Below, in pieces: positions 8,449 through 43,050 of a DNA stretch of 64,000 nt. Origin of the DNA: Eledone cirrhosa (Eukaryota). Where the stretch lies: NCBI GenBank assembly GCA_964016885.1, contig OZ024741.1:199826001-199890000 (forward strand), written 5' to 3'. Position 1 is the first letter of the stretch, and each line of letters starts with the position of its first letter. A program made the translations under genes and the position numbers. Under the pieces are notes generated by a model. It saw only the letters and a program-made list of their open reading frames with translations, had not been told where the DNA came from and searched no databases.

Positions 8449-8452
<4 letters not shown>

Positions 8453-8592: not shown

Positions 8593-8632
<40 letters not shown>

Positions 8633-8674: not shown

Positions 8675-9090
8675 TATATATATATGTATACACACACACA
8701 CACATTTATATATATACACATACGTATATGTATGGGCCTTCCAGTGTCATTTCACATTATATACATGTCTGTGTATGTTTTAATTATTCAAAAATTATTT
8801 TGAAGTGAACGTGACCCAACAGGTCAGGGGTGGTCTAGTATCTATATAAATATACATATCTATATCTATAAGTATATGTATCATATTTAATAAAGAAATG
8901 GCTTCAACAGGACTAAAGCTGTTTCATGAAATCATCAGGAATATCAGGTGGCACAGTAAGTCAAGTTTCCTAATGGTTGGGGGATGATAGTAGTGAAGAG
9001 GGCTTATTTTAGGGAGCAGATATCAAGTAGTGGATTCGAGGATGTAGGGAGGAGTTGTGGTAAAAGTGGATAATTTCAAAAGATAGGATT

Positions 9091-9167
<77 letters not shown>

Positions 9168-9301
9168 GAGGTTATATTTAATTTGTTGGGATTCAACAAG
9201 CTTAAACATTTTTTTTATAACTGATATAAAGCACTCAACAGTTTAGTCGAGTAAATATACAATATATTAACAATTGGAAACTATATTTATAAAACCATAT
9301 T

Positions 9302-9367
9302 TATTCTATTATACATATTTCAAGGGACACCAAGGCAAATTATGGTGTGCTTTCATCAGATAAAATA
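9302..9367 (-). ncRNA. Type I hammerhead ribozyme motif, sense to the CPQ pre-mRNA
   Basis: Minus strand: tattttat CTGATGA aagcacacca-taatttgcct-tggtgtccctt GAAA tatgta TA atagaata. 8-bp stem I (one G.U), bulged stem II, very short stem III, intact core. Confidence 0.75.
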
Positions 9368-9549
9368 TAATACAGATTAGTTTTATAAATAAATATTGAC
9401 ATACCCTGAAAAAAAGACAACCTTAATGGTTGGAGCTTCCTGGATAGTATATATATATATATATGTATGTGTATATATATATATATGAGTGTGTGTGAGT
9501 CCCAGACTCAATCAGGATTAACCAGAGTAAGTAAGGTACTCAATACATT

Positions 9550-9720
9550 TGTAGAGGGTATACAACAACATTTAGTATAGAAATGGCTTCTACAGGACTA
9601 GAACTGTTTCATTCAATGAAATCATTAGGAAAAGTAACTTTTCCTGATGATTTTGTTTGAATGAAACAGTTCTAGTCTTGTAGAAGCCATTTCTATATTA
9701 AATTTTGTTATATCTATACA
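9550..9720. repeat. Fold-back inverted repeat (~80-bp arms) whose arms carry a minimal hammerhead-like motif
   Basis: tatagaaatggcttctacaggactagaactgtttcattcaa...aggaaaagt / acttttcct...gaatgaaacagttctagtcttgtagaagccatttctata. A further copy of the arm lies at about 8894-8942. Confidence 0.85.
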
Positions 9721-9979
9721 TATAAAACTGTTGTTGTCTGTGTGTGTGTCCTCATTTTTGCAAAGTCTATACAAATCCACATTTCTACTCCGATTGACTT
9801 CAAACTTGCATTTATATATTCCTTGCGGTCTAAAGATACTAACTGCAGCTTTTTCTGTTGTTAAAGGGGTGTTAGGCGCCGGTTATCGATCTCCGTCGAG
9901 CCCTTATAATATCTGTCTGTATGTCTAGCTGTCTGCATAACGACATTCTGACGAACACATCATTGCTGACGTATTATCT

Positions 9980-10008
9980 TCGCTACATTCACACACACAC
10001 ACACACAC

Positions 10009-10039
<31 letters not shown>

Positions 10040-10192
10040 CATATATACATACACATATACATATATATATATATGTACATATACAAACACATATACACAT
10101 ATATAGATATACACATATATAAATATACACATAAAAATATATGTATATATATACACACACATACACACACATATATATATATATATATACAT

Positions 10193-10224
<32 letters not shown>

Positions 10225-10257
10225 GCATAAATACACACACACATATATATATATGTA

Positions 10258-10299
<42 letters not shown>

Positions 10300-10300
10300 T
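9980..10300. repeat. Compound (CA)n/(TA)n microsatellite
   Basis: Direct reading; source of several spurious YI/CV-rich ORFs. Confidence 0.97.
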
Positions 10301-10590
10301 ACATTGTAGGTTGCTTTAACCCATCTTATTATTAAAAAAACTTCTTGCCAATAAACATTAACCCTTTGTGCGCCATTCATCTAACTGTAGACCAACAAAT
10401 ACCAAGTAAATGGAGCGTTGACAAGAACGATGGCAAATGAATCTTCGAGGTAAGCAGTTTCCTCCCGAGCTGTTAGTTCACGCAGGATTCTCTGCTACAC
10501 CTTTTCGTAATAATACCGAACAACGTACTGCTGGTCACTCCTTCCTCCAAAAGCCGTACAAAGCATCTCTCTCTGTCTATATATATATAT

Positions 10591-11335
10591 AGTTATTTTT
10601 CCTAAATCTTTCGTTAACTACTTTTCCCATCTTGACGTTATAGTCGCATATATGTTATAGAATGCCGTTAGCTTCTTGCTAAAACAATCTCTATACCTCT
10701 CATTTATATTTATACTCGGATTCTTTTCCTAGAGTGCTTAAACTATCTGTGACTAATCCCGGTTTTTTTCATAAAAACTGTGATAATTATTGCTATTTTG
10801 CTGAACTCCTTTGTAGAGTTTTTTTCAGAATGTATTTGACTGCTATTTCTTGTAAATAAACATTCACTTCCATCCTGACGTCACTAGCCCCGTTTTTTCC
10901 TCATGTGCTTTTTCATAAATACACATGAAGGCGAACTAACCAGTTTTAGAACTCCCTTTTTCGGATTATATTACTGTGAGAGCCCTGGTTTCTGTTGAGC
11001 TCTGCTGATGAATGAAATCCAACCGTGACCATCTCCACTGAAAGTTTTCATGAAATAGTCTTTTAAGACTATACAGAGCATTTGATGTTATTCCAAATTG
11101 AAGGATAAGTGTTTCAAACTTTATTTTATCATGAGTTAGGTCTATAGATTTTTCCCTGGATTTTACTAAATTCTGTGGATGAATTTATATCCTGATTCTC
11201 TTTTGAGATGAGTTTGAGTTATTTTTCCTAAATCTTTCGTTAACTACTTTTCCCATCTTGACGTTATAGTCGCATATATGTTATAGAATGCCGTTAGCTT
11301 CTTGCTAAAACAATCTCTACACCTCTCATTTATAT
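10591..11335 (+). mobile_element. Retrozyme-like non-coding element: 626-nt unit plus 119-bp terminal direct repeat, inserted in (TA)n
   Basis: 10591-10709 equals 11217-11335 with one mismatch. No ORF of 60 aa or more in the track. Internal hammerhead; TA runs on both sides. Confidence 0.8.
10999..11079 (+). ncRNA. Type I hammerhead ribozyme (intact core)
   Basis: gctctg CTGATGA atgaaa-[28 nt]-tttcat GAAA tagtct-ttta-agacta TA cagagc. Three perfect 6-bp stems; predicted cleavage after A11073. Confidence 0.9.
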
Positions 11336-12391
11336 ATATATATATATATTTGTTATAAGAATATATTAAAGTTTAAGCAAAGAATCGCTGCTTTCAACAT
11401 TAACGGGATCTTCTGAAACTAAAAAATTCAATCTGTGACCGCAGAAGTAAATATTTCGAGAAACGTTGCAATCGAAGGAAAACAGGAAGACAATATTTTG
11501 GTTCGTGAAGACGTTCCCTAGTAATGAACGGAAAAAAAAGCGAGGATAATACGTCGTTATGTGGACTGAGAAGAACAATTTCATGCAAAGACAAGACCAA
11601 GTTTATGGTATAAATGGAGTCGTTAGACTAATATTCTATTTAAAATAACCGAATGATTTCCAGCCCCGGAGTTTAAGAATGATGTAAATAAAATTGAAAA
11701 CGAAAATGACAGAGGTTATTAAAATAGTAAAAGTAAATAGTGAAGATTTAGGCCAGTACATACGTATGGCCCGACGGACATACACATACAAATACATACA
11801 CACACACAAACACACACACAGACACACACACACACACACACACACGTGTGTGTGTGTGTAAACCTTATGCATTTCTACAGTATTTTCACCAAACTTAAGA
11901 CATAGGTTACATATGTACTCCGGATGGTCATGGGCACTTTCATTTTTCCAGATATTGATAATAGCCCCCCCCCCCCCCCCCCCCCGGCAGATAACCCCTT
12001 TAACCACTTTAACCACTTCTTTGGAGTCGACTGAAGCACTGCAGTGCATTGCAACAAAACGTCATAACTTCTAGAGTTCGCAACCGATTTTCACAAAACC
12101 TGACATATGGGCTACATTTGTTCTATAGATGAATGTGAACTCTCAGAATTGGCACATATTGAGTAGGGGACCCTTGGGGGCAGGAACCCCCTTTTGGAAA
12201 AAGCCGATGATTTTGTAAAAGTATAGTTTTCGAAGCAGCACTGAAGTATTGACATAAATGGTATACACAACTGCTATTTAATACCCGAACAACGCCGGGT
12301 ACCTCTGCTAGTATATATATATATATATATACATGATGTCTCACCCTTGCAAGCAGCGAAAAGCGAACGTAAAATGATGATGATGATGATG

Positions 12392-13785
12392 GACTCTCCC
12401 GTCGATTCGACGTATGAGGGTTCAACAGTTTTTTCAGTTTATTGTTTTATGTTTATGTCTCAAATGGCACTTCAATCCAGCTGCTGATTTACACATCAAT
12501 CTGCATTTGGTACAGGTGACAGGATCTTGAATAGAGCAGGCTCGAATGCCTGACTGGACTCTGGTGTCAGATCTTATCTCACAGAGATGGGCTAAACGAA
12601 ATTTCACAAAGTTCTTCATACCTTCGTGGCAGACGGTCCTCCATCTTTTACGGTTGGCGGCATATAGCTTCAAACGAAGAAGGAGGTATGCTGACAGACT
12701 TAAGATTGTACTTCAGTTTGTCCTTATATTGGAGTAGTGGTCTACCCATACTATACACTCCATCCTGGAGCTGACTGTACCACAGTACCTTAGACACCCG
12801 TAGGACATGACCATCCCATCTGAGTTGGGATTGCACCAGAAATGACTTAATCTCACCAATGTTGCACCTTGTGACAGTTTTGCATTGGAAACTCTGTCAG
12901 AAAGTGCATATCCACAAACAGAACAAAGACGGTGTGTTTGTGGAATACATCAAGCTTATGTATGTGAGTGCGGTAAAGTGTCCATGACTCTGAGCCATAT
13001 AAGAGTGTTGTCAGTATCACTGGGATATACCTTTGGCACTCCATATGCAGTGATGTAGTTTGCCAAAAGCATCAGCTGCCTTGGAGATGCAATTAACAAT
13101 CTCATCATCCAGGGATGCAGAGTGATTCACCTTGCTGTCAAAGTAAGTAAAGGAGCTCACATATTTCAGATCCTTGCCATCAATAGTGATGGGTGCAAGA
13201 GGATGCCCTTGATCTGGCCACATCTGTTTAACACCTCCTGCATACCTGGGGATGGCTTTGTTTGATGTACCACCTCAGTCTTCTTGATGCTGATTATTAG
13301 ACCAAAAGCTTTACAGGCAAGCGAAAAGCAGTTCATCAATTCTTGTGCCTCTTTGAGGGATGTTGCAATAAGTGCAGCATCATCAGCAAAGAGTAAATCG
13401 TGTGAGTATTTTAGCCAAAGCGCTGATGGTTAAATAGCCCACCTGATGTACAGAACTTAAATCTGACACCAGTGTCAAAATCGCCAAATACACGCTGGAG
13501 CATTACAGAAAAGAACAAAGCAAAGAAGACAGGAGCTATGACACAACCCTGCTTCGTACCATTTGTAACAGCAAAGGGTTCAGAGCATTCACCATCTGAC
13601 ATAATTGATGCTTCCATGCCCTCTTTGAAGGATATGATGATATTTAGCATATTATCAGGTATGCCAAGCTTTTTCAGGATTTTCCAAAAAGCTTTGCAAT
13701 TGACAGTGCCGAAGGCTTTAGTCAGGTCAACAAAAACCATAAACAGGTCTTGGTTCCTTTCACAAACCTTCTCTGTGACCTGTTG
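12392..13785 (-). mobile_element. RTE-clade (BovB-like) LINE, 5'-truncated and decayed
   Basis: FVDLTKAF, GTKQGCVIAPVFF, LLYGSESW, QLRWDGHV, C-terminal CTKCRLMCKSAAGLKCHLRHKH zinc finger. Confidence 0.88.
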
Positions 13786-14194
13786 AAGGCCATAATATCT
13801 ACCCAGCAATTCTTTCCTGAGACATTCTAACCACATGACCATAGTATCAGAGTAGTGATCTTTCAATTCAGAGAAGTAGGGACTCTCTGATCTCAGAGCT
13901 ACACACTCTATCAAGTAATGTTACTCCAAAGACCCTTAATTCTTTTTAAGGAAAACGTTGCTGTTATATTAAAAAATCTTTTAAAAACGGTAAAATATAC
14001 TATTAATCCTATTTAAATTATCATACATTATAGTTCGATAAATAGATAAAAATTAGAGAGTGAATTAATAAAACAATTAATTTACAGTGACATAAATATG
14101 TAAATGTTTTTAAAAAAATACAGCATAAGTTTTTATAAACACATGAGTTCTGTTTGATGTTGGTTTTAATTAATCTGGACTGAAGGCAATTATT

Positions 14195-14305
14195 ATATAT
14201 ATATATATATACAGATAGATAAATATAAATATATATATACATATATATATACATATAAATATATACATACATATATATAGACACACATACACACACACAC
14301 AGACG

Positions 14306-14355
<50 letters not shown>

Positions 14356-14356
14356 A

Positions 14357-14403
<47 letters not shown>

Positions 14404-14435
14404 CAAATATATATACACATATATATATATATACA
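14195..14435. repeat. Compound (TA)n/(CA)n microsatellite
   Basis: Direct reading. Confidence 0.95.
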
Positions 14436-15094
14436 GATATTAGGAATAAGAGGGATCAGATGTTGTTTACTCGAGAGAAGACTACATTGGTACGGTCACG
14501 TGCTGCGCATGAAAGACGGCAGGTGTATAAAAAAGTGCAGGGCAATAAAAATAGACAGTAGCCATGGAGTAGGCAGACCCAGAAAAACCTGGGACGACTT
14601 GATAAATTCCAACCTCACACACTTACACCTCTCCAAGACAATGTCACTGGACCGAGATCTTTGGCACTACACAGTAATACAGAAGACCCGCCTTGCCTAA
14701 GTACAAAGCGACACCTACTACAGTCAGTAGGCACCTCTAACAAAATACACCCCCGTCCCACTACCCCCACCCCATCCACACCACCCCTTTCGATGTAAAG
14801 TTATGTTGGTACCACAACATCCAGTCCGAAATAAATGAGGTTGTGTAGGTGTCACGACAAAAAACACACAGTCCACGCTGTTATGTGGCCGTGTAGGTAA
14901 CACGATAAAAACCTCCCAGTCCACACTGTAAACGTGGTTGGTGTTAGGAAGGGCATCCAGCCATAGAAAACCCGCCAGACAGTCCTATACGAGCAAGACA
15001 ACCAATCTTGCCTCAAGCGGGAAAATTCCCGCCCAAACCCATGCAAGCGTGGAAGATGGACGTTAAACGATGATGATGATGATGATGATGATGA
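14436..15094 (+). mobile_element. RTE LINE 3' end with long 3'UTR and (GAT)n tail
   Basis: [14 protein letters not shown]...GRPRKTW; 3'UTR ggaagggcatccagcc...gttaaacgatgatgat. Nearly identical copy at 25833-26372. Confidence 0.88.
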
Positions 15095-15689
15095 TAGAAA
15101 TATACATACATAAGTGTCCATTTTTCCATGTTTGCATGGGTTAGATGTGTCGTCCATGCCAAGAGGCAAATCTGGCCTGAGTTGGCCATGTCGCACCTTG
15201 CTCTGGTGAGGACTGTAAATTTGGCAGGGTTTTTTACAGCGGGATGCCCTTCCTAACACTAACCACATTTACAGTGTGGAACTGGATGGCTCTGTTGTGA
15301 GGAGGGACAGGCCAGTTGACCGCACCGAACCCATTTCACAATGGAACCAAAGTTTTGGAGCCCAGTACTGGATAGCACTGATATGAGGAGCCTAACCCAT
15401 CTCACAGCATAACCACAGTTGGCCTCGCTATGTAGAGGGACAGGTAGTTGGCTGCGCCAAACCCTTCTCACAGTGGCATCCCAGTTTCAGAGCCAGGCAA
15501 TCTCCATGCGACATACTCGTCTCAATACAAAACCACATGAGAGCCTAGGACTGGATGACACTACGATTGGAGGGAGAGGCCAGTTGGCCAAACCAAACCC
15601 TTCACACAGCGGACCCTCAGTTCAGCTGTTGGAATGCCACGTGACTCACCTGCTCACACCAGAACCCCAGTTTCGGAACTGGTGACTCT

Positions 15690-16390
15690 TCACTTGTCGA
15701 ATCCTTCTCAATACAAAATCACATTTTACTTCTGGATGACTGCGATGAATACCTGTGACCTTCATGACCTGGTCAACTAACTTAATGCCTCTATAGTTTT
15801 CTCTATCTAGAGTGTCACCTTCGCTCTTGTAGCAGTTAACGATGATGCTGCTACACCAGTCATTTGGTATGACCCTATTCTGTATTACTTGGTTTACTAT
15901 ACAGATGACTATGATATGACCTATCATCTCAGATGCTTTCAACATCTCAGCAACTATCCCTGAAGGTCCAGCTGCCTTGCCTGTCTTCATATCTTTGATT
16001 GGCTTACTTACTATACTACTACTAACTTCGCACAGCTGGTCCCTCTGTTGGATCAACTTGGGGAAAACTATCTTTATCCCATTCATTCTCCTCATTTAAT
16101 AATCTTTCATAGTGGAACTTCCATGCTGCCTTCTTATCAATATCAGTGAGGGGAAGTATACCATTATCATTACGGACACACTTCTCCCCAACAATATCAC
16201 AATTTTCCTTGACACATTGCCTCACAATCCTGAACACCTCACGTTTATGGTCCTCGCGTTGTAGAACATACTTGAACCTTCTATTCTCTGCTTCCCTTCT
16301 TGCAAAGTACACCTGTTGCCTAGCTTTTCTCCTACCTACCTGATAGTGTTCTCTACTTTTCCCATCCCGCCATTCTTTCCAAGCCCACCA
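15690..16390 (-). mobile_element. RTE LINE internal fragment
   Basis: AWKEW...DIVGEKCVRND...MKTGKAAGPSGIVAEMLKAS...NYRGIKLVDQVMKV; same family as 795-3810 and 60480-63790. Confidence 0.88.
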
Positions 16391-16391
16391 G

Positions 16392-16424
<33 letters not shown>

Positions 16425-16487
16425 TACATATGTGTATATATATCAAAGTTATAGTAAGAGAAAATACAACCAAAGTACTTGAAAAAG

Positions 16488-16612
16488 TGTTTGTTTGTTT
16501 ACAAATTGTTTCGAAGGATATGATCACAATACTATAAATATTTGAATCAATAGGTTTGCGTGTTATTAAGAGCAAATCATAACCCTAACCTCTTCTTCGG
16601 AACATACAAACA
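16488..16612 (-). ncRNA. Variant/degenerate type I hammerhead-like motif with long stem II insertion
   Basis: tgtttgtatgtt CCGAAGA agagg...atccttc GAAA caatttg TA aacaaacaaaca. 12-bp stem I with one mismatch; core has U4>C. Confidence 0.4.
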
Positions 16613-17621
16613 AATTTCAAAATATATGTCACTTAGGGACGAATTAAAACAAGCAGTTTTTATCAGAAAAAAACCCCCCAGAAAGGTTTGTTTTCTGATG
16701 ACACAGGTTCCAGATCTCTGGTGTTATGCAGCATAAGACCCGCCTCTCCATGTGCACAGGTTGAAGCATGAATCTTGCATGTACTGCCTTCCCATCCCCT
16801 CTCCATACACCCCCACCCTTCATTCATGTCTCTCCCTCTCTCCTATTCCATGAACCTGTCATGTCCTAATACTTCACCCACACCCTAACATTCCACCCTT
16901 TATCCAAGTTCCTACACCCCCAACTTTCATCAGATAAATATCCCACTCTAGATCTACCTCACCAATCCCCATGAACCTCCTACCCCTACCCCTACCCCAC
17001 ACTCTAAAGTGGTTGTGTAGGTGTTACAATAAAAAGCACCCAATACACACTGAAAATATGGTTGGCATTAAGAAGGGCATCCAGCCATAGAAACCAAGCC
17101 AGAAGCAGTTCTGTGTGTGTGAGACATGGTCATCTGATTTGGCTTATCTCACAACAGGACAACTCGTCTAACCCATGCTAGTGTGGAAAAATGGATGTTA
17201 CATAGTGATGGCGGTGATGATGATGAGGATAAAGGGTTTAATCAGAAACCTCAGTTCCTTTCTTCTGAAATAATCTGATTTTGCTATTTGTCATTTTGCC
17301 ACTCTCTTATGTATCTTGGGTAAATTGATCCAGAAAATATGGGTCCCAACTGAGTTGACAACTTTACAGATCATTAAGTTTGATACAGAACTTGGAGTTA
17401 TCTGAGTATTAACTTGATGATTCAAATTAACCTGATGATGTTAACAATGAATCAAAACAAATGTATATACAGTGACAAAAATGTGAAACACACATACACA
17501 CACACAGGCATGTACGTGCATACACACACACACACAAATAAAGCATTTAGTTAAACTTACTGTTTATTAAAAATTAATTGTTAAAAAATAAATTGAAGCA
17601 TAAAAGTTTTGAGAGAAATAC

Positions 17622-17708
17622 CTGCCATGAAATAAAAGCACCCCCTCCATCATCCATGGCTCCTTGTCCAACATCCCAGCTGTCAATATGGCCACTGACT
17701 AAAACAAT
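17622..17708 (-). CDS. CPQ: Carboxypeptidase Q coding exon (87 nt, phase 0-0), zinc-ligand His and Asp
   Basis: ctaaatag|ATT...CAG|gtattt. [29 protein letters not shown]; M28 HxDS and DDxxG motifs. Confidence 0.97.
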
Positions 17709-17747
17709 CTATTTAGAAATACATAACATTATATTATTATTGAAGTG

Positions 17748-17940
17748 GGCGGTGGATTGGCAGTATCGGTAGAGGGTCGGACGCCATGCTTTGACGCATA
17801 GAGTTACGGCCCTTGTCATTCTGAGTTCAAATCCCGCCGAGGTTAACTTTGCCTTTCCTCCTTACGGGGTCGATAAAATAAAGTACCAGTAATACACTGG
17901 GTAATTGCTGGCCTTTTGCCAAAAGTAGAAACAATTATAT
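17748..17940 (+). mobile_element. tRNA-derived SINE
   Basis: Head ggattggcagtatcggtagag..., B-box-like gagttcaaatccc, conserved core gaggttaactttgcctttc.tccttacggggtcgataaaataaagtaccag, tail gtagaaacaattat. Confidence 0.88.
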
Positions 17941-18014
17941 TATTATTGAAATGGAATTAGGGATAAACTAAATATGTAGAAACAATTAAATAAACCAGAA
18001 CAGGGCTTATCAAT

Positions 18015-18232
18015 AATGGTTTCTGATTTAGGCACAAGGCCAACACATTTGGGGAGGGGAAAGTTGATTAAATCGACCCCAGTGTATTACTGGTACTATA
18101 TTTTATCGACCCCGTAAGGATGAAAGACAAAGCTAACCTCAGTGGGATTTGAACTTAGAATCTAAAGTGTAATATCTACATGCCACAAAGCATGCTGTCT
18201 GACTTTCTACCAATACTGCCAATCCACTGCCG
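18015..18232 (-). mobile_element. Same SINE family, inverted relative to 17748-17940
   Basis: ctggtactatattttatcgaccccgtaaggatgaaag...ggatttgaac is the reverse complement of the core. Confidence 0.85.
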
Positions 18233-19111: not shown

Positions 19112-19215
19112 CTGTTCAGGGTACTTATGGCCTACAACTTCTGCAACGATATTCCTCGAGTCAGTAGAGTTATATGTTTTGGCAGACATCTTCAAGACAA
19201 TAATAATTTTACTTC
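19112..19215 (-). CDS. CPQ: Carboxypeptidase Q coding exon (104 nt, phase 1-0)
   Basis: tttctttcag|GA...CAG|gtaaat. (G)SKIIIVLKMSAKTYNSTDSRNIVAEVVGHKYPEQ. Confidence 0.95.
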
Positions 19216-20689: not shown

Positions 20690-20822
20690 AACTCCTGGTA
20701 AAAGGAGCAACAAGAAATAACATGTCTTGCTCAAGGACATAACACATTGCCCAGTTCAGGAATGAAACTCAGAACCTCATGATTGCGAATCCAATTCCCT
20801 GACTACTAAGCCATGCGACTTC
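20690..20822 (-). mobile_element. Second SINE family fragment
   Basis: tgtcttgctcaaggacataacac...aactcagaacctcatgattgcgaatcc...actaagccatgcg; related pieces at about 30300-30362 and 48490-48585. Confidence 0.6.
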
Positions 20823-27479: not shown

Positions 27480-27644
27480 TTGCTGTCCAGTGTGAGGACT
27501 ATATATTGAAAAAGGTGTAACACTTCTGATAAGACAAGCTAATGCTCCAACTCTGGCTGCTTCAGTTGCTCCTTGAGTCCGATATTTAACTGTCTTACTA
27601 TAACCCTTCCAGTTTTGGTTGAATACAACAATTTTACCTTCAGC
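27480..27644 (-). CDS. CPQ: Carboxypeptidase Q coding exon (165 nt, phase 0-0)
   Basis: tttatag|GCT...CAA|gtaagt. AEGKIVVFNQNWKGYSKTVKYRTQGATEAARVGALACLIRSVTPFSIYSPHTGQQ. Confidence 0.96.
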
Positions 27645-30625: not shown

Positions 30626-30807
30626 ATATAAACATATCATATATACCTCCATATGCACAACTATTCCTGAGTAGTGTTTGTGTTTAGTGTGAAAATGTTG
30701 AAGTATTTATAGTTATTTGGTTTGGAATAGTGCCTTTCATTTGATTAAGCAGTTGTAAAATTTTAATCTTAATTTTTTTTTTCACAAAGAAAAGCCTAAA
30801 TATGTAC

Positions 30808-30975: not shown

Positions 30976-31319
30976 CTAAAATTACAATGGATAAATAAAT
31001 AAATTAATAAATACATACATACCAAATATAAATAAAAATAAATAGGTTAAAATTTTACACACAGATATATATATATATGTACACACAGATATACAAGCAC
31101 ACACACACACACACACACACAGATATATATGGACATACATACACATATATATGCACACACAGAGATATATAAGCACACACACAGATATATATGCACATAC
31201 ATACACATATATATGCACACACATACACAGATATGTATGCACATATATATGCACACACACACACACGTAGATATATATGCAGACACACTCACAGATATAT
31301 ATATGTACACACACACCCT

Positions 31320-33622
31320 TCAGCCGAAATCGACTCAACAATTGATCTCCACGTGGCTCTGTTGTTCATTGCTGTTGCTGGATTTCAATATCAGAATCTC
31401 TGGAGATGACATGGGATAGGAGAGCTTGTGCCCCGTTATTAGTGACTGCTTGTGGTTTCCAAAGCACTAATGGGGACACAGCCTCATAAGTGGCACGATG
31501 GCAGTGGTCAGCAAATATTACTCTCCTTTTATGTACAACAACAAATATGCGTGGGAGGCCAGCATATATCTCTCTCAAAGTCAGATGTTGTCAGCTTATG
31601 TTCTGAATGCGTTGAAGCAGGCGAGTCTAAGTGCCATCAAGGTGTTTTTTGTTGTTTGGATGAAAGCGTCGATGTTTCACTTCCATATAGCAAGATTGGT
31701 TGAATTGTTACTTGGAAGAGTCTGATCTTGGCGCGGTTGGAAAGATTTGAGCACCAAACTCGATCCATCTTGTTGCAAGCTGACCATGCTTGGGCCTTTC
31801 TGGTGGCGAAATCCTTCTCAGAGTCCATGATCCAGGACCCAAGATACTTGAAATCCTCGACTTGCTTGATATCACTGCCATTGATTGCTTTGATGTTGTT
31901 GCCTGTACAATTTGATATGTACTCTGTTTTATCCTCATTGAGATGAAGGCCAACGAGGGCGGCTGCTTCCTGGAGAGATGTCAAAAGTGGTTGCGCATTT
32001 TCTAGGCAATCTGCAAGAAGTGCAATGTCATCCGCAAAGTCAAGGTCAGTGAGATGTTTAGAGGGATGCCTAGATCTCATGCAGGGTTTGATGGTTATAC
32101 CTTTGTTATTGATTTTGTCAATTGAGAGTCTCAGGGCGTAGTCTAGTGCAATGATAAAGAGGAATGGGGCAAGAGTGTCACCCTGCAGCACTCCTGCTGA
32201 GATGTCAAAGAACTCTGTTGGGTCATCAGGAGTGATGATAGTGGCACTTGTGTTGAGATACAGAGCCTTAATTGCTTCTACAAGTCTTGCTGGGATGCCA
32301 TACAAAGGTAGAATTTCAAACAGAATGTCTCTGTTTATGCTGTCAAAAGCTTTTCTAAAGTCAGAAAAAACAGAGCCATTTGTCTGTTGGAGTTTCTCAT
32401 CTCTTCCACTACTCTTCTCAAAATCTGTGCAAGTGTAGATCTACCACGCCTAAAACTGTTTTGGTTGAGGTGAAGGATTGGATCAACATACAGAATTATA
32501 CAGTTTAGGATTAGCTTGTTGTAGATCTTGGCAGCAATAGGCATATGTGATATTCCTCGGTAGTTTTGGGGGGATGAGAGGTCGCCTTTTTTGGGGACAG
32601 GAACTTCTTCTCCAACTCCTTGGTGAATTTGAACTCTTCTCATCTACAAATAGCTTCATGAAAAAGCAATCCAAGCTCTGGTCATTCACCCTAATGGTAG
32701 TAGAGCTCAATTGGATTATATCCTATTTCGGAAAAAATGGCGAAACATTGTACAAGACTCTGAAACCTATTCTGCCTTCTCCAATATGGCATCTGATCAC
32801 AGGATTATCTCTTCCAAAGTTACTCTTAGCCTTCGCGCTCCTAAGAAAGTTCCCACTGAACCGATGGAACAAATTGACTGGAGGTTAGTGTCATCAAATA
32901 AGGAGCTCTCCAGCCAGTATGCAATTAGTGTCTACAATAGGGTCTCTGAACTACCCTTTACTGATGATTGCATTGAGACTAAATACTCCAACCTAATTGC
33001 TTCAAATGAGGAAGTTGCTCTTTTCAGCTTACCCCCAAAAACCAAAAGGAAGCTCACGAAATATCCTCAGCGCGTAAACAACTGCAAAGTCTTTCTTCTC
33101 AGTATAACTCAAATCCAACTAGTTTACTGAAAAGTGAAATGACCCAATGCAAAAAAGACCTTGATGAGGCATACACAACTGCTCTTGCTGAGTATGTAGA
33201 AGGAAAAATAAACAAACTTAAGACCCTTCATATATACAAACAGCACGCAGTCGCATGGGCTTTAATCAATGAAATAACTGGTAGAAAAGAAAACCCTTCC
33301 CCCATCATCAAAGGAGGCTCTCAAGAAGCTTGGAAAAAGAGCTGGACTGACCACTTCAAGGGTCTACTGGGAGAACCCTCCCCTGTAGAAGGCGATCGCC
33401 CAAAGTCTATGGTATCACCTGAACTCGACATCTCCACTGGACTTTTCACCTTGAGTTTGATCAACCAGGTGATCAAAACACTTGAAAACAAAAAATCACC
33501 CAGTCTCAACAACATACCCAGTATAATTTGGAAAGACCCAAACCTTACTTCAGTTCTATTATCAATCTGCAACGACACCTTAAGCAACAAATTTCCCCCA
33601 ACAAGTTGGCTAAAAGCAGGCA
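31320..33622. mobile_element. RTE-superfamily LINE with inverted 5' segment (RT on minus 31320-32605; endonuclease end and linker on plus 32610-33622)
   Basis: Minus: PVPKKGDLS..NYRGIS, GVLQGDTLAPFLF, LDFADDIALL, FKYLGSW, LLYGSET. Plus: LDYILFRKKWRN, SDHRII, ...KSPSLNNIP...SWLKAG. Confidence 0.88.
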
Positions 33623-33730
33623 CTCAGATATATATGCACACAGAGATATATATGTACATAAACACTCACACATAGATATATATGCACACAACCATACAGA
33701 TATATATATATATATATATGCACACACACA

Positions 33731-33841
33731 CATGTATGCAGGGCCCGCCTTCGGAAGTTCAGGGCCCAGTTGGCTATTAATGCACACACAAACATGTATG
33801 CAGGGCCTGCCTTCGGAAGTTCAGGGCCCAGTTGGCTATTA
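33731..33841. repeat. Tandem duplication of a ~62-bp GC-rich unit
   Basis: catgtatgcagggccYgccttcggaagttcagggcccagttggctatta occurs twice. Confidence 0.85.
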
Positions 33842-34706
33842 CATATATATTTCAATAAGCTATTGTGTGTAGTTGATGAGTCAAGAGCAGATTACTCTTA
33901 CACATGACCTCTTAAGTGCAGGGCCCAATAAGGAGCAGTTGGCCCATCTGGGTTAAGTTCAGCCCTTTATGTATGTGTGTTGGAACTCTATTGATTCTGA
34001 CAATGATTGTTCCAGTTGTTTGATCAATGCTAACAGCCTACTCATAAAATTAACATGCAAATAGTTGAACATTCCACAGATTCAACATGATACAATGTGT
34101 GACAAAGTCTTAATTAATTAATTAGTTTATTTATTTTATTTTAATCTATTTCTTATATAATAAATTTTTGGTATCGGTTATAATATTCACAGTTGTTGCA
34201 GACCTGTGGACAATGTGGGGTTGGGAGGAGATGGATGTTGCTACTATTATAGCAGCTGCTCTCTACTACAGCTACTGATAGAGAGGGGAGGGAGAAGGGC
34301 TACCAGCCATTTTCATTACTTCCTAAACTGACCAACACTTGAGTCAAAATTCTTAGTGTCATACAGGGGCTGGCTGTTGAAGAAACAACACCACACATTC
34401 GGCCGGCCCCTGTATAATGAAAAGAAATGTTTTTTCAGGGAAATTATTGGATTTTTCCAAATTTAAAGGTTTTTTAGGAACTTTCAATGTTTATTTTAGG
34501 TTTCGCTGTCTGAAGAGCTAAGGCTATCATAACCAATAATCCTCAGTGAAATATGTATAGCAGAGTTATGAATAATTTTTTGGTATCGGTTATAATATTC
34601 ACACTTGTGAATATTATAACCGATAAACAACTGAATATGGCCTCCGGTCTTTTATTAATATATATATATATATGTATATAAATAGGGAGACACAAAGCAA
34701 GCTTTG

Positions 34707-34850
34707 TGTAGAAACAGCTAGCGAATTTAAAATTTCTTTTTCCATTCAGACGGTTCTTTAAAATCCCCACTAACAGACTAATTTAATTTAGTCAAATACG
34801 GCATAAGCACATGTCACTACCTAATTTTCAAATTCGCTAGCTGTTTCTAC
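34707..34850. mobile_element. Small inverted-repeat (MITE-like) element
   Basis: gtagaaacagctagcgaattt-aaaatt ... aattttcaaattcgctagctgtttctac. Confidence 0.6.
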
Positions 34851-36100
34851 CTAATTATATACATATGTATATATTTGTTTATATTTTATCACAGCTATTG
34901 TAGCTTTCTATATTGGACAGATACCATACTTGAGATTTGTTGGCTATTTCTTCCTTTCTTTCCCCTTCTTTCATTCTTTCTCTCTTCCCTTCCTCTTACT
35001 GCTTTTTTTTTTCTTTCCGCCTCTCTTCTCCTACCTGCTGATCTTACTCATCACTTCCGCTTACTATCATCTCCACACAAAAAGCCATTGTTGTTGCCTT
35101 TTCTTACAGGAACCTGAGGCCGAGTGGATGCACTTTATTTTTCACTCTCTCTCTGACCTGTCTGTCTGTTTATCTAATCTGTTCGTTCGCCACCAAAACA
35201 TCATAAAAACAGAGTATTTACTTCTTCATGTACGAGCCATCTATCTTACGTGGTATTTTTAGTTAAATTGTTGAAACCACATGCGGTCTAAAAACTGATG
35301 AGAGTATTTAAATGTTTATGTGATCTTCCCTCCTCCATTTTTCTCCTATCACTTCTATGGACCCACGCACTTCCAGCCACTTGATCCTATGGAGGAGAGG
35401 AAGGAGAATGTGGGAGGTGAGGAAAAAGAACTCTGTGCCACTTACAGTGAGGCCATAGAGGAGGTGCTGATGGAGAAGATCAGGAGTGTGGAGAGAGCAC
35501 TTGACAGGTGTAAATGTAAAGAAAGCTGGACGATCATCAACAAGATCACTGGGAGGAAGATAGGGAGATCAAGTCAGATCCGGGGAACAGGGCCCGAGGA
35601 TAAGAAGACGAAGTGGCTGGACCATTTTAAGACTCTACTAGGAGAGACACCTTCCACAACCCAGAACATATATATATAAAGGGTTATTGTAGATTGATGA
35701 TGGTGTACTTGCCATCACTGACGCTGATAAGAAGGTAGCTTGGAAGTGTCACTACGAAAGGCTACTGTCTGTCTGTTTATCCCAATTGAAACTAATGCTA
35801 GGCGATGTGGTAACTAATGCCTTATATTGGCAGTTAAAGGGTTTTATTCCTTTTTCTTTCTCTCCTAATAATACAAACATATCTAAATTCTCCATAGCGT
35901 CTAAAATAACGGTTTTTCAATCATATACCTCATTTACATATTCATTAGCATACTCATCCTAACAATTTTAAATCCACTATCCAAGTAATACTTCAACTGA
36001 TAAGGTATGTTCCTTGGCTATGTCAACATTTATAAAACACACTTTGTATTTTACCTGATGAAAGCGTACCAAAGTTTTTGGTACCCTTCAAATATATATA

Positions 36101-37403
36101 CAGGGTGTGGACGATATTTGTTCACAATTTTCAACTGCTAATTTTATGCAAATTTTTTTTACTTCCGTTGTCACTCTTGTCTTCATAAAAACAGTGACTA
36201 TATTCCCATTATTTATTTTCAGAATAATTTATTATGAATAATTTTGAACCTCCAAATTTGTGGAAGAGACACAGAGTTCTTCTTGGAATCCGCACCAGGA
36301 GGACAAATAAGGAAATTTCAGACTTTCTCAGCATCAGCAGAAGAATGGTGGAAAAGGTCAGAAAGAAATTGGAAGATTCAGGATTCGACTACGAAGCAAC
36401 ATCACAGAGGAAAACACATGATCGACGATCTGACGCCTACAGAATGCTTGAGTTCGTCGCTGAAGTTCAGGATATCATCAACAATGAACCTAGCAAGTCG
36501 ATGCATGTCATTGCAAGGGAGAAAGGCGTGGATGAAAAGCTCATTAGGCTGGTGGTACATGAAGACATTCGCTACGTTTCATACAAGATGAGGAAAGGAC
36601 AATTTCTGTAAAAGGCGATGCAAGAAAAGCGACTGAAGCACGCAAAGAAGCTGATCAACAAGTTGAAACACCCACTGGAGCCAGACATGCTGTGGTTTTT
36701 CTCCGACGAGAAAAACTTCTGCCAAGACCAGAAGATCAACTCCCAGAACAACAGGTGGCTCGCTGTCTCATCCAAAGACGTGCCCAGAGTCATGCAGACA
36801 GTTTCCAGCGACAACATTGGTATTAGGTGTCGTCAGCAGTCAAGGTGATGTCATACCACCTCACTTCTTCCCGGAGGGCCTCAAACTGAACACCGATGGC
36901 TACATCCGCGTTCTGAGTGAGGTAGTAAATCCCTGGATCAACCAGGTAGCTGCAAGTAGGTCGTATGTGTGCCAGCAAGACTCAGACCCTGCCATACCAG
37001 CCGAAAGACCCAAGCCTGGCAGTCAGAGAACTTCGTCGACCACACTTCACCTGACATCTGGCCTCCCACCTCGCCTGACTGCAACCCCCTCCACTTCTTT
37101 GTGTGGGGTGCAGTGGAACGAGACACCAACAGATCTAGCTGCAATACAAAAGACAATCTGAAGGCCAGGATCACAAGTGCCTTTAGGGCCTAAGTCGGGG
37201 GACAGTGACGAAGGCTTGTAGCTGGTTCCGAGGCCACCTTGAGGCCGCCATCAAAGCCAATGGCGGGTTTATTGAGTGAGATCGAAAGAACAAGTCATGA
37301 AGACAAACTGACCCAAGTTTGATAAATATATCTTAAAAAATAAAACTACTGTGTTATTTTTTCCTAGACAGTAATTTTGCGAACAAATATCGTCTGCACC
37401 CTG
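36101..37403 (+). mobile_element. Tc1/mariner-superfamily DD37D (maT-type) transposon, full length, transposase pseudogenised
   Basis: TIRs cagggtgtggacgatatttgttcac / gcgaacaaatatcgtctgcaccctg with TA duplication. FFSDEKNF, QQDS, WPPTSPDCNPL(H); 37-residue spacing after frameshift repair; internal stops and frameshifts. Confidence 0.93.
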
Positions 37404-37944
37404 TAATAGAATAAATACGGTTTTATAAATATAGTTTCCAAATATTTAATATCATTGAATATTTACCCCAGAAAACTGTCAAGTGCTCTGAATCAGTTAT
37501 AAACATTTATATTTGTTGAATTACCAACAAATTGAATATCCCTTCTGCTTACACACACACACACATATATATATATATATCCCATATACACACATATATA
37601 TTTTATACATACATACACACACACACATATATACATACACACACATACATATACATACATATACACATACACACATATATATATTCTCCACACATTTTAT
37701 ATACACATACATCATCATCATCATCATCAACGTTTAACGTCCGTGTTCCACGCTTGCATGGGTTTGGACGGGGGTTTTCCCACTTGAGGCAAGAGTGATT
37801 GTCTTGCTCGCATAGGACTATCTGGCGGGTTTTCTACAGCTGGATGCCCTTCCTAACACCAACCACATTTACAGTGTGGGGCTGGGAGGTTTTTACCGTG
37901 TTGCCTACACGGCCACATTACAGCGTGGAATATACACATATATA

Positions 37945-39330
37945 TTCCATATAAACACATTTTATACCACGACTTAGGAGTTGAAGCTGTTGACTTCTGG
38001 ATTACAAAACATCCAGACTACATTTCAGAGAGATTTCCCAAAAAATTTATTTTGGAAGGACTCGTACTGGAGAATTTATTTTGGAAGGAACTAGTACTGG
38101 AGAACAACTACTTCCTTTTTGATAACAAACTATATTTACAAATAAAAAGAACGGCAATGGGGACCAAAGTGGCCCCAACATATGCAACACTCGTTATGGG
38201 CCACCTGGAGGCAAAATTACATTCCAAACTGCAGGAAACATTCAGTTGTGACTTCGCCACTACATTAATCACAACTGGAAATGCTACCTAGATGACTGCT
38301 TCATCTTCTGGAATAGAAGCCAAGAAGACCTTCAAAGATTCCATTCCATAATAAACAATCTTCACAAAGAAATAAAATTTACCATGGAATGTAATAAAAA
38401 GGAACTACCGTTTCTGGATATCCTTATCATTAAGGAAGGGGAAAATATCAAAACGGACTTGTTTTACAAACCAACAGACACACACCAATACTTGAATTTC
38501 CGCTCAGCACAACCATCACATACCAAAAGGAACATTCCTTCTAACATGGCAAGACGCATCTGCACCATAGTGACACACCACACACTACAGGAAAAAAGAT
38601 TATATGAATTAAAAGAGTTCATTAAGAGACAAGAATATCAGGTGAACCCCATCAACACAGCCATCTCCAAAGCCCAGAACATCCCAGTGACAACACTGAG
38701 AAAAACAAAGCAACAAAATAGAATGGAAAAAACAGTTATCCCTTTTGTCATCACTCACAATCCAAGGAACTTCAACATTGTAAAAGCCGCCAAACAATAT
38801 CTCCCGATTCTCCAGCAGTCCCCCAAAATGAATGCACTTATAAAAGATGCACAAATTATATATAGTAGACGCCAAGCACCCAACCTAAAGAAACTGCTTA
38901 CCAAGTCAAAATTTACGTCTAATAATGAAACAATGCAAGTTAAGAAATGTGGGGACCCTCGATGCAGAACTTGTAACTCATTGAAGAGGGTGGATAAATC
39001 TCCTTTAAAAACAACCAGTCTTTCACAGTTAATGCAAACATGAATTGCAAAACAAAAAACTTGATTTACTGTGCAACCTGCCCACAATGTAAAGAATACT
39101 ACATTGGTGAAACCGGAATGGGTCTACATGACAGAGTTTGAGTACATAAACAACAAATTAGAGACCCCTCTGTCAGAAACACCACATGCAGTGAACACTT
39201 CGCAACATGCGGAAAGGGAAATTTCACAATTTTCCCCTTCTTTAAGATATGGTCGGACAACGAACACTTCCGAAAATATAAAGAAGAATTCTTTATTAGA
39301 AAATACAAACCATTACTGAACACAAAAAGT
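37945..39330 (+). mobile_element. Penelope-like element (RT plus GIY-YIG endonuclease), 5'-truncated and frameshifted
   Basis: TAMGTKVAPTYATLVMG, YLDDCF, LPFLDI, YKPTDTHQYL, KCGDPRCRTC, LIYCATCPQCKEYYIGETG. Confidence 0.92.
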
Positions 39331-39929
39331 GATATTCCATTTTCAAGCAACGGGATTCTCCCCCTCTTTTTTCTTTAAAAAAATCTCACATTGAAAAAGA
39401 AAAATAGTTGATGACACCCGTACTCTCAAACATTCGATCACTGAAGAGAAGAAAAACCCTCAGAGGTACATTTCATTAATTTCCCCTTCCCCACACCAAT
39501 GTATATATGAACTTAAACACTTAAGTGGATGTGTGTATAGATATATGTATGTATAGATGTGTTTTTTTTATATATGTGCCTGTAGGTATACAGATATATG
39601 TGTACATGTTTATGTGTATGTGTGCATATGTGTGTGTGTATATTTATATATGTGTGTATGTATGCACGTGCGTATGTGTGAGATAGATATGTGTGTATAT
39701 ATATGTATGTGTGTGTATATATGTATGTGTGGATATGTGTATAATATATTTATATGTATATATATGTAGTATATATATGTATATGTAAACAAATATATAT
39801 ATGTAGGAGGTATTAAATGTGTTTATATGGAATATAATAGATACCAATACAAGCAATGATACCATTAATGATAGTAACAAAAATAATAGGAATAACATAA
39901 ATAGTAATCTTAGATTACATAACACATCC

Positions 39930-40570
39930 CAAACAAGTAGGTGCAATTGTAGAATTAAAGCTAACTGCCCCCTTAATGGCAATTGCTTAATTCGCAGTAT
40001 AGTATGTAAATGTAAAGTAATTACTAAGGACAATACTAATTCATTTAACCCTTTAATGTTCAAACCGGCCAAAGCCGGCCAGAATTCTCTACCTCTTTCT
40101 GTTGAAACTGGCTGTAACTGGCCACTCATACTGATGTTAAGGTATTGTTCTCAAAATAAATACTTTCAAAATCTCATAGATTGGATATTATGTGAGATAA
40201 TTATGCGAGGTAAAGCCTTTACTGTGAACATATAATAGTATATATAGAGTAATGTGAATGCTAAAGGGTTAAGAAAAAGTTCTATTCACATACCCATTTA
40301 AAAAAAAATACTAAATTAGCTAACACCACCTCACTAGCTGAAACTATTAACAATTTTAAAATGAAAAATATAGCATACAACCTAAAATGGAGTGTCCTGA
40401 AGAGAACTAACTCATATCAAGGTGAAAGAAGGGAGTGCCAATTATGTTCTCAGGAACTGTTCCAAATCGTGAAATCTAAGGATTGGATACTAAATAAAAA
40501 GCAGAAATTAATTATTTCATGTAATCATATAATCCTGAAAACTTTTAAATACTATAAACCTACCTAATAC
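39930..40570 (+). mobile_element. Second Penelope-like element, C-terminal fragment split by a MITE
   Basis: CNCRIKANCPLNGNCL..SIV ... YNLKWSVLKR...CQLCSQE: cysteine pattern typical of PLE endonuclease regions. Confidence 0.65.
40049..40268. mobile_element. piggyBac-type MITE, 220 bp, TTAA duplication
   Basis: ttaa|ccctttaatgttca ... tgaatgctaaaggg|ttaa. Confidence 0.82.
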
Positions 40571-41724
40571 TTGAAATCACTATGGTCATAACTAGTTTCT
40601 TCAACCAAGTGAGACATAACTAGAAATAATGTATTCTTACCGAAATAATCTACCTATAAAATAAATGAATGTTGGTAATTAATTAAATCAGCATTAATCG
40701 GATCCTTCAAAAGCGGATATGGCATTTCCTTATTTTAATAATACTATTGACTCCTAAACTAATCAAAATAACTTACAATCTAACTAATCAAATTGATTTA
40801 ATGAAAATCATATTCTTCTATCTAAACCATAATAAATATTCAAAAGCAATATTAGAATTTAGATACAACTTAAATTACCATGTATTAATATCACCTAACA
40901 TGAGATAATTTTAGCCTTGGAAATGTTTATATCACTCAATATTTTCTCATATTGGAATTACGAATTAACCCAAACAACCTATATAATTAGCTCAAACTTT
41001 ATTACCTATCCTAAATCAGCATTAGATTTGAAAAATTAATTTTTTTTCTTACTATATATGTATTTATGTATACACATATAACCTTGATTAAGAAACAAGG
41101 CATGCCTTCCAAATTGGGTTTTTATCAAATATTACTAATTTATTGAATATTATATTATTAAATATTACTTTCTCAAGTTAGCAATACAGTAACTTATAAA
41201 TTAATAGACTTGTATAATAACCAAGTAATTTCCCTATATCTAAATTAAAACACCCATATAAAAACAAGTTTATTTATTATCAACCGAATGCTTAACATCC
41301 CTCAATTAAGACATCTTTTCTCAGATTTATTACCCCTAGCACAAGAGACTCACAACATTTATGATCTGTTCATCTCCCTGCTGATGCTGCTTTATCCACT
41401 TACACCTCAAATGATAGTGGGGATAAGGTAAGTAGAAGTGGTGGGTGGGAGGAGGGAAGAAAAGAAGCAGTAAGAGGAAAGGAAGAGCGGGGAGGGAGAG
41501 AAAGCATGAAAGAAAGGGGAATAAAAGATGAGGGAAGAAATAGCCAACAAACCTCAGTCATGGTATTCATCCCAAATAAAAAGCTACAATAGCTGTGATA
41601 AAATATAAACAAAGTTTATCTCGAATATAGAGCCTGAAACAGGATTGTATTAGAATCCGTAGGATAATGGGAAAAACTCAATGCAAGGAAGCTGTTAAAA
41701 CAGCAAAATGCTGTCAATTACATT

Positions 41725-42155
41725 GTCGGGTTCTAACTCTAGCTACTAAACTTTCAGAGCATCCTCCTCCACTGCTGAGTTTGTCACCCAGGTAGTGGAA
41801 GGTGTCTACTATTTCTATAGAACCATCTGGGCAGTTGAAGGAGATATCATCCAGTGGGTCCTTGCTACTTACTGCACCTGAGCATCGGCAACATATAAAA
41901 TCTACATTTTTAGATAGCTTACCTCTGATCCCACTACGTTTTTTATGTACCCATAGTTTGCATTTGGAACATAGAATGTAGTTTCTGCCTATTCTCTTCT
42001 TACATACTGAGCATGGCCATTTCCCAGAGGGTACCTGTGCCCTATCCTCCTTTCTACATACTAGAACCTTAGTCTTAGATAAGTTGACTCTAAGGTCTTT
42101 TGATTCAAGGCCATGCTTCCATGTTTGGAACTTCCTCTTTAGTTCAGCCATGGAT
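41725..42155 (-). mobile_element. RTE LINE fragment covering the PHD-like finger
   Basis: LRVNLSKTKV, WPCSVCKK..CSKCKLWVHK...CCRC, FHYLGD. Confidence 0.88.
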
Positions 42156-42159
42156 TCAG

Positions 42160-42200
<41 letters not shown>

Positions 42201-42249
42201 TATATATATATATGTGTGTGTGTATATTTATATAGATATATATAATCCT

Positions 42250-43050
42250 ACCCACACCAAACTCTCCTCTACTCCAAATTCCTTGGTCTTCGTTGGCTTT
42301 GTATCTAGGACCATGATTTCGAGACCCAATCCCAACACATGGCATTCTGCTTCATGCATTGTGGATATGGATATCGCCCCACCCTGATCCAAGCTTCCCT
42401 CACCTGTGCCTGTGATACTGACCATATCACAGCCCTCTCACCCCATCACTGCCCCCCATCTCTCGCTACCTTTCCTTCTCACTCTACCTCTCCAGCAACA
42501 TATCATCCTTTGGTTCGATATCCACTCTTCTGACCCCGTCACTTCTCACTTCTTTCCAAACCAACCCATCACTACCTTCAAGAGCGCCAGTAATCTCTGC
42601 GACCTCCTGGTATATAGTTCCTTCCCTTCCTCTCCTAGACTCCACCTGGCTCCTGCCCCTGTTCTTATCCCCACTGTAACACCTATCTCTTCATTTCTAA
42701 CCTCACCATTCTCACAGGAACTAATGGCTCATTCCGTATCCACCACTCCTTCACCTGCACATCCACTCATGTAGTCTATGCCCTCCGGTGTTCTCTTTGT
42801 GGGTCCATATATATATCGATCAAACAGGCAGTTGTCTGGCAGACCATTTTGCCGAACACTTGAGGGACTTGGCATGGATACCTCCATCGTTCGCCATTTC
42901 TGTTCCTCGTGCCAATCTTTCCTACATGTCATAGTTATTGGTCTCCTTTTACATCACAGATCACAAGCCATGAACACCAGGACTTGATCAGAGTCTGATT
43001 TTCCACCATGGATCCAGTTTCCCTAATGGACTCAACTCTCCTAATGGACT
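42250..43050 (+). mobile_element. Old Penelope-like C-terminal fragment
   Basis: Frameshifted PC..PHC, FTCTSTHVVY, CSLCGSIYI(D)QTG...RFAEH remnants of a GIY-YIG domain. Confidence 0.55.

Follow-up and report, generated by a model that had tools for sequence, protein, structure and literature searches.

Type I hammerhead motifs in two introns of a carboxypeptidase Q gene

We analysed a 64,000-nucleotide stretch of DNA from Eledone cirrhosa (GenBank assembly GCA_964016885.1, contig OZ024741.1, positions 199,826,001 to 199,890,000 of the forward strand; hereafter the window, from whose first letter all positions are counted) that carries hammerhead ribozyme motifs and remnants of Penelope-like elements (PLEs). 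The window consists of animal DNA with many microsatellites and many remnants of long interspersed nuclear elements (LINEs). An exon on the minus strand at 27480-27644 shares 84% identity with Octopus carboxypeptidase Q, and a tblastn search with the Octopus vulgaris carboxypeptidase Q (CPQ) gave 12 exon matches, 58-100% identical per exon, which place the gene at 3824-56022 of the minus strand. Because of this exon identity the DNA appears to be of octopod affinity, and the host gene is most readily taken to be the carboxypeptidase Q of an octopod relative. A sequence-only reading of the window had proposed that several unrelated hammerhead repeats and three PLE remnants co-occur in the introns of one gene; the repeats indeed lie in CPQ, distributed over two of its introns (Table 1).

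Table 1. Features of the window, with the evidence on which each rests
Feature	Position	Strand	Description	Basis
CPQ intron	7488-17621	-	contains D1, A1, D2/D3 and B	CPQ exon placement
CPQ intron	30976-47654	-	contains C, A2 and PLE remnants 1-3	CPQ exon placement
Unit A, copy 1 (A1)	9165-9447	-	about 280 nt between two (TA)n tracts	homology to A2, covering 9165-9406
Unit A, copy 2 (A2)	36016-37548	+	two parts, 36016-36100 and 37404-37548	74-80% identity to A1
Transposon remnant splitting A2	36101-37403	+	1.3 kb, with terminal inverted repeats (TIRs), at a TA inside stem III	weak helix-turn-helix matches, TIRs
Unit B	10591-11335	+	partial tandem without open reading frame (ORF), period 626 nt	self-comparison, folding
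Unit C	34159-34625	+	partial tandem with no ORF; its period of 412 nt falls to about 360 if the insert is left out	self-comparison
Unit D, copy 1 (D1)	8861-8941	-	core 8938; a deletion of 5-6 nt has collapsed stem II	homology
Unit D, copies 2 and 3 (D2, D3)	9560-9713	.	head-to-head 154-nt palindrome	self-comparison
PLE remnant 1 (PLE1)	37965-39324	+	5'-truncated, frameshifted reverse transcriptase (RT; C-terminal half), Cx4Cx2C linker, GIY-YIG; apparently Neptune-like	homologues, translation
PLE remnant 2 (PLE2)	39936-40564	+	Hydra-type endonuclease piece, split at 40044-40272 by a TTAA-flanked insert	translation, HMMER
PLE remnant 3 (PLE3)	42250-43050	+	decayed linker and GIY-YIG, endonuclease part only; apparently Neptune-like	profile, translation
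PLE remnant 4 (PLE4)	53072-53541	+	Hydra-type endonuclease piece, 53072-53218 and 53476-53541	homology; absent from the sequence-only reading

The window was scanned with a strict type I descriptor comprising CUGANGA, GAAA and stems I to III. Three loci matched, at 9359 (minus strand; A1), 11005 (plus; B) and 34510 (plus; C); dinucleotide shuffles gave a mean of 0.03 and none of 60 reached three, and a null that kept the 33 real CUGANGA boxes and shuffled only what lies downstream gave a mean of 0.06, with none of 300 reaching three. A descriptor allowing a mismatch at the stem II base, a relaxation chosen post hoc after the motif at 9644 (plus; D2) had been seen, added that motif and gave four observed matches against a shuffle mean of 0.175 (0/40). 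Self-BLAST and pairwise alignment recovered damaged paralogues at 36055 (plus; A2), 9628 (minus; D3) and 8938 (minus; D1), so that the tally comes to four hammerhead types in seven copies and six insertions, with three of the seven copies damaged. The types do not align with one another beyond AT-rich noise, and within the window only A (two copies) and D (three copies in two insertions) are dispersed, B and C occurring once each. Thus, the proposal of at least four sequence-distinct hammerhead repeats is borne out by descriptor, shuffles and alignment, and the motif density lies far above that of the shuffled controls. No type II or type III hammerhead motif was found in the window.

The core elements CUGANGA, GAAA and UH stand in type I order and are intact in A1, B, C and D2, and A2 and D3 carry one core change each (G12 to C and G5 to A, respectively), at positions where changes inactivate the hammerhead. 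The three helices, counting a palindromic stem III as acceptable for dimers, measure 6, 6 and 7 bp in B (10999-11079); 8 bp, 3+6 and a palindrome in A1 (9367-9302), whose stem II is long; 4 bp, 6 of 7 and a palindrome in C (34506-34563), likewise of the dimer type; and 4, 3 and 4 bp with a U.U base of stem II in D2, the plus arm of the D palindrome, whose minus arm is D3. With these sequence elements and helices A1, B, C and D2 qualify as candidate type I hammerhead ribozymes, for which self-cleavage is predicted; the predicted cut falls after 9310 in A1, after 11073 in B and after 34559 in C. The minimum-energy fold of B is the hammerhead junction, in which stem I has a mean pair probability of 1.0 and stem III one of 0.96, and the whole unit taken as a circle folds better than shuffles (z -4.5). 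Between A1 and A2 two adjacent pairs of stem II differ on both sides with pairing kept, a pattern of compensatory change that, coming from two sequences, is suggestive only. An alignment of ten motifs made with MAFFT was too poor for a covariance model.

Allowing one core substitution gave 12 matches against a shuffle mean of 2.1, from which the four intact motifs and 9628 were kept. The matches at 17217, 17220, 31780, 50663, 48032, 33916 and 16666, and that at 49144 from a GAA-relaxed set, were dropped as lying in other repeats or lacking an intact-core paralogue. The one-mismatch match at 33916 (minus), treated as chance, comes from the hairpin of a GGGCCC-rich repeat at 33718-33960 that also contains a 62-nt tandem duplication.

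Anatomy of the units and adjacency to (TA)n

Units B and C amount to 1.2 and 1.1 units, respectively, with one hammerhead each, a longest open frame of 72 amino acids, and GC contents of 0.34 (626 nt) and 0.39 (about 412 nt). Because they are ORF-less partial tandems, they are probably non-autonomous elements. B is bounded by a 119-nt terminal direct repeat with one mismatch and has (TA)n on both sides, and it reads as a young insertion. C has a 38-nt repeat at either end, an inverted copy of 20 nt at its 3' end and a 49-nt TA-flanked insert (34364-34412). Its upstream repeat (34153-34196 versus 34560-34608) starts 6-11 nt past the cut-site position, which is a single case.

The homology that defines unit D runs from 3 nt before the core to 30-45 nt past the cut site. 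Just upstream of D1, at 8945-8968 (minus), 22 of 24 nucleotides are identical to the GIY-YIG coding DNA of PLE1 at 39057-39080 (plus) (blastn E 3e-4); one of 1000 shuffles reaches this match, which has no extension and came from 11 queries, and which may be due to a template switch or to chance. The element that interrupts A2 is, from its TA target, its TIRs and a protein likeness, presumably of the Tc1/mariner type.

Unit ends fall within 40 nt of a (TA)n tract of five or more repeats in 5 of 12 cases, as against 7 of the 88 ends that 44 other repeat intervals provide (Fisher p 0.005), and counted by insertion the ratio is 4/6 versus 7/44 (p 0.017); in both comparisons the 40-nt threshold is post hoc, ends are not independent, and control ends are those of merged BLAST intervals, the unit ends being defined by homology. 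Several hammerhead repeats therefore do adjoin (TA)n, as had been noticed from the sequence, and an insertion signature is present in these (TA)n-adjacent ends. The pattern of PLE-type retrotransposition is seen in the position of the hammerheads, 30-260 nt ahead of a 3' end next to TA, and in the partial tandems and short inverted copies; the partial tandems of B and C, the tail and inverted copy of C, and the inverted pair of D have the structure expected of PLE pseudo-long terminal repeats (pseudo-LTRs) or their derivatives.

PLE remnants and their relatives

The three PLE remnants named in the sequence-only reading are real, two being Neptune-like and one of the Hydra type, and a fourth, again of the Hydra type, was added at 53 kb; all four are broken or decayed. 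PLE1 gave at least 100 protein matches, many from bivalves and annotated as RT plus GIY-YIG, with bivalve Neptune-like PLEs such as P0002 and P0016 among its relatives; the best matches are 58-61% identical, and the relatives that its RT and GIY-YIG regions match have both Pfam domains. In PLE3, 42648-42818 matches a PLE1-family profile at E 1e-6, and the rest was read by eye; a PDB search with the PLE3 fragment returned chance antibody matches only. The Neptune-like assignment of PLE1 and PLE3 is drawn from the Cx2-5CxxC linker motif rather than from a tree. The translation of PLE2 contains a CxCx5C linker and the CxxC and CxH motifs, and no CCHH, which is how the Hydra clade is defined; 605 relatives came out of a full HMMER search (E up to 0.001), and a word-index protein search with the PLE2 fragment found no match. 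The insert in PLE2 we take to be a miniature inverted-repeat transposable element (MITE), two further copies of which lie in the window. PLE4 is split by an insert of about 250 nt and has a 33-nt inverted copy upstream at 52897-52929, so that together they span 52897-53541. Only the endonuclease part is present in PLE2 and PLE4, and in their long relatives P0145 and P0276 RT-like motifs are seen by eye with no Pfam match. Five PLE fragments submitted to Pfam were not recognised. After PLE1 a lone CUGAAGA box at 39441, with the second box and stem I missing, was not counted as a hammerhead.

With an alignment of PLE1, four loci (L001 to L004) were obtained from genome contigs. In L001 and L002 a minimal hammerhead follows the stop codon by 190 and 146 nt, respectively, with a TATATA end about 60 nt later as judged by eye; also by eye, stem III of L002 is the same ATATAT palindrome as in A and C, and L001 has a U.U base like D. 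The motif of L004, 763 nt from the stop, is less clear, and no hammerhead core was found in L003, unlike in L001 and L002. In these two relatives the minimal hammerhead thus comes 146-190 nt behind the stop, in contrast to PLE1, which is truncated and frameshifted and retains one core box only. The contigs on which these PLE ORFs and 3' hammerhead-like motifs lie (L001 1660-1960, L002 3512-3790, L004 4542) are filed as bacterial and are probably eukaryotic contamination.

Comparison with known systems

The general idea of an association between hammerheads, PLEs and (TA)n is already published, including one Octopus family. PMC4209133 (Cervera and de la Pena 2014) describes PLE repeats with minimal hammerheads that number thousands per genome and belong to heterogeneous families, mostly as single motifs that probably derive from truncated PLEs. 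The present motifs share with those PLE pseudo-LTR hammerheads the type I topology, a long stem II, a short stem I and, in A and C, a palindromic stem III for dimer cleavage, as well as the occurrence of many unrelated families per genome, mostly of single motifs, and of some close opposite-strand pairs such as D2/D3. They differ in that no unit is attached to a PLE ORF and in the 7-bp stem III of B, described in that source for fungal and protist and not for animal PLEs; the predicted monomer-competent hammerhead of B is unusual among animal PLE-type elements.

In PMC8557442 (Craig et al. 2021) the Hydra clade is defined, its elements having hammerheads and targeting (TA)n; Hydra-1_Obim from Octopus bimaculoides, with (TA)n preference, and three Octopus Naiads are listed, and non-autonomous elements with pseudo-LTRs are reported in Chlamydomonas. 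Common to these PLEs and the window are the (TA)n insertion preference, a hammerhead a few tens of nucleotides before the 3' end and, for PLE2 and PLE4, the Hydra-type endonuclease. Unit D further resembles them in its U.U base of stem II and its ACAG/CUGU stem III (in the Hydra table of that source, 14 of 26 rows have U.U at the stem II base and 5 of 26 have ACAG/YUGU in stem III) but differs in its loop III of 8 nt, as against 0-3 nt in the 26 rows. The hammerhead and tail of Hydra-1_Obim, in the form given there, are by eye unlike those of A-D, and six 10-12 nt motifs from the window gave three matches only in the compared part of the supplement, one of them inside a coral Hydra hammerhead.

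Non-LTR retrozymes, including one of mussel, are the subject of PMC7229834 (Cervera and de la Pena 2020), where PLEs are named as likely helpers; a preprint (Li et al. 2026, 10.64898/2026.07.22.740005) links Xenopus retrozymes to PLE pseudo-LTRs and, in its compared part, leaves non-vertebrates without a phylogenetic test. Like these elements, B and C are non-coding units of a few hundred nucleotides with low GC (below 45%), a type I hammerhead and a PLE as proposed helper, are inserted at more than unit length, and have periods within the 51-972 bp range of the preprint. In contrast, retrozymes are defined by at least two tandem hammerheads and are expressed as circles, and in this window B and C have one hammerhead each. 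B and C look undescribed, and the supplementary lists of PMC4209133, PMC7229834 and the preprint may hold similar motifs or molluscan families. No hammerhead census of cephalopods was found in the literature searched, which excluded most subscription journals and Repbase and so is not proof of absence.

Orientation in the host gene and other features of the window

The CPQ transcript runs on the minus strand. Three hammerhead copies share its sense, namely A1, which is of the dimer type, D1, whose stem II is deleted, and D3, with its core change; B, C, D2 and A2 are antisense to it. The pattern fits selection against intron cleavage, for which seven copies are too few to show it.

Several further repeats were observed. 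A near-perfect 146-nt inverted repeat with a (TA)16 centre, at 8540-8685 and 175 nt from D1, is the source of spurious Rfam microRNA matches. Three copies of the TTAA-flanked MITE-like repeat lie at 7064-7276, 7721-7945 and 40044-40272, the first two with an imperfect palindrome (7550-7721) between them. An inverted pair of a pyrimidine-rich repeat, at 34874-35021 just after C and at 41448-41613 after PLE2, yielded no hammerhead or PLE coding signal. A 49-nt tandem array of about six copies, 96% alike, at 24905-25195 is made up of TA and CA tracts and is adjoined by a short hairpin repeat also present at 23499-23615. A long degenerate (CAT/CAC)n array at 56225-56980, with open frames rich in His, in Asp/Gly and in Ile/Thr, is probably non-coding, and the minus strand at 57154-58930 holds a non-LTR retrotransposon remnant of higher GC, unlike the other LINE pieces of the window.

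Discussion

We consider it probable that the hammerhead units are independent insertions, made by PLE-type retrotransposition into TA-rich octopod intron DNA, and that they pile up because TA-rich targets are shared, not because neighbours are partners. The four type I motifs each lie 30-260 nt upstream of the 3' end of their unit. According to the part of PMC11167929 compared here, the PLE protein nicks AT-rich DNA and reverse transcription begins inside the RNA, downstream of the hammerhead; this start would account for the 30-40 bp PLE tail, a length that the 38-nt repeat of C matches, and would leave most copies as 5'-truncated 3' ends keeping only the ribozyme. A and D are probably 3' ends of this kind, left by PLEs or by short derivatives that the window does not contain, which is simpler than making either an independent non-coding RNA. 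B and C would have been copied from ORF-less templates longer than one unit, either a tandem transcript or an RNA circle, and since such templates have no ORF they would need a helper, most likely a PLE; the two would then be non-autonomous, retrozyme-like passengers of some PLE. The prediction is cleavage by the monomer in B, by the dimer only in A and C, and none in A2, D1 and D3.

A number of observations weigh against PLE-type insertion of active ribozyme units. Descriptor scans found no complete hammerhead 3' of PLE remnants 1-4; beyond the core, the ends of units A-D align neither with the 3' regions of PLE1-3 nor with those of L001, L002 and L004; and next to the units no piece of PLE coding sequence was found (best blastx E 0.43, no profile match). 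The ends of D1 and D2/D3 are 75-228 nt from a perfect (TA)5 tract. Folded as monomers, A1, C and D2 fail to form the hammerhead (stem I pair probability at most 0.06), which is expected for A and C and unexpected for D with its 4-bp stem III. All four types have U at 11.1, and none has the usual G10.1-C11.1 pair stressed in the compared part of PMC4209133; in the preprint on Xenopus, one of nine predicted retrozyme dimers assayed cleaved. Rfam gave no hammerhead at E up to 1 for the whole window or at E up to 10 for three small stretches, its matches in the window being only hairpin and microsatellite hits below gathering scores; this negative says little, because Rfam also misses the hammerhead motifs behind the PLE ORFs of L001 and L002, used as controls.

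Together with the weak monomer folding of A, C and D and the post hoc relaxation of one descriptor, the missing Rfam match could suggest that the motifs are chance matches in AT-rich repeats. We find this hardly credible, since 0/60, 0/40 and 0/300 shuffles reach the observed counts, A shows compensatory changes, B folds as a hammerhead, and the control motifs escape Rfam as well. The sequence-only reading had suggested ribozyme-bearing RNAs mobilised by PLE proteins and had noted that co-location does not prove a partnership; in a strong form of that idea, four families of hammerhead non-coding RNAs would each be actively mobilised in partnership with the PLE lineages beside them. The presence of three PLE lineages and four hammerhead types in one gene, the 24 nt upstream of D1, of which 22 agree with PLE1 endonuclease DNA, and the likeness of D to Hydra-type hammerheads with two Hydra remnants at hand all point that way, but we judge it distinctly unlikely: no termini are shared with the local PLEs, which are all decayed and lack a complete hammerhead; the 24-nt match does not extend and stems from 11 queries; damage is present in three of seven hammerhead copies; and of the four types, three (A1, B and D) are about 27 kb and several exons away from PLE1, in a different intron. 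What survives of the wider proposal, that ribozyme RNAs are mobilised by PLEs with a preference for TA, is upheld by the motif excess, the (TA)n ends and the PLE-type anatomy, and the partnership with neighbouring PLEs is the part that is not supported.

An alternative with a real, if minor, chance of being right is that A-D are all plain fragments of autonomous PLE pseudo-LTRs, B and C having arisen by internal deletion or local duplication and never having moved alone. Single hammerheads from truncated PLEs are the commonest form in the compared part of PMC4209133, B and C occur once each in the window, and neither has two tandem hammerheads; on the other hand, a junction of two full PLE copies would have a period of 2-4 kb and contain an ORF, in contrast to the ORF-less periods of 626 and 412 nt, and B, with (TA)n on both sides and near-identical repeats, looks like a single recent insertion. 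The helper of B and C could also have been a LINE of the RTE or CR1 type, or the two could have been amplified as satellite DNA, given that RT-coding LINE remnants are plentiful in the window and that PMC7229834, as far as compared, leaves LINEs open as helpers. This seems improbable to us, as the LINE/SINE-type repeats (SINE, short interspersed nuclear element) here end in (CAT)n or (GAT)n and rarely have ends at (TA)n (7/88), and such tails are absent from B and C, where partial tandems and short inverted copies are seen.

PLE-type retrotransposition of B and C leads to a more specific conjecture, which we hold to be unlikely as it stands, namely that they are octopod PLE passengers copied from ribozyme-processed RNA, so that their ends would record cleavage in vivo. 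The 5' end of C's template may have been set by self-cleavage, because its upstream copy starts 6-11 nt after the cut-site position. In the compared part of PMC11167929 the ribozyme is dispensable for insertion in vitro, and no reads ended at the cut site. For a cleavage assay, and for a trans-mobilisation test with a PLE protein, B is a candidate that is both clean and young. If the conjecture were true for many copies, it would be evidence, from the genome, for a role of the hammerhead in the transposition cycle of PLEs in vivo. For octopods, a density of about one hammerhead type per 16 kb, as seen here, suggests a large uncatalogued set of such ribozymes that Rfam does not detect.

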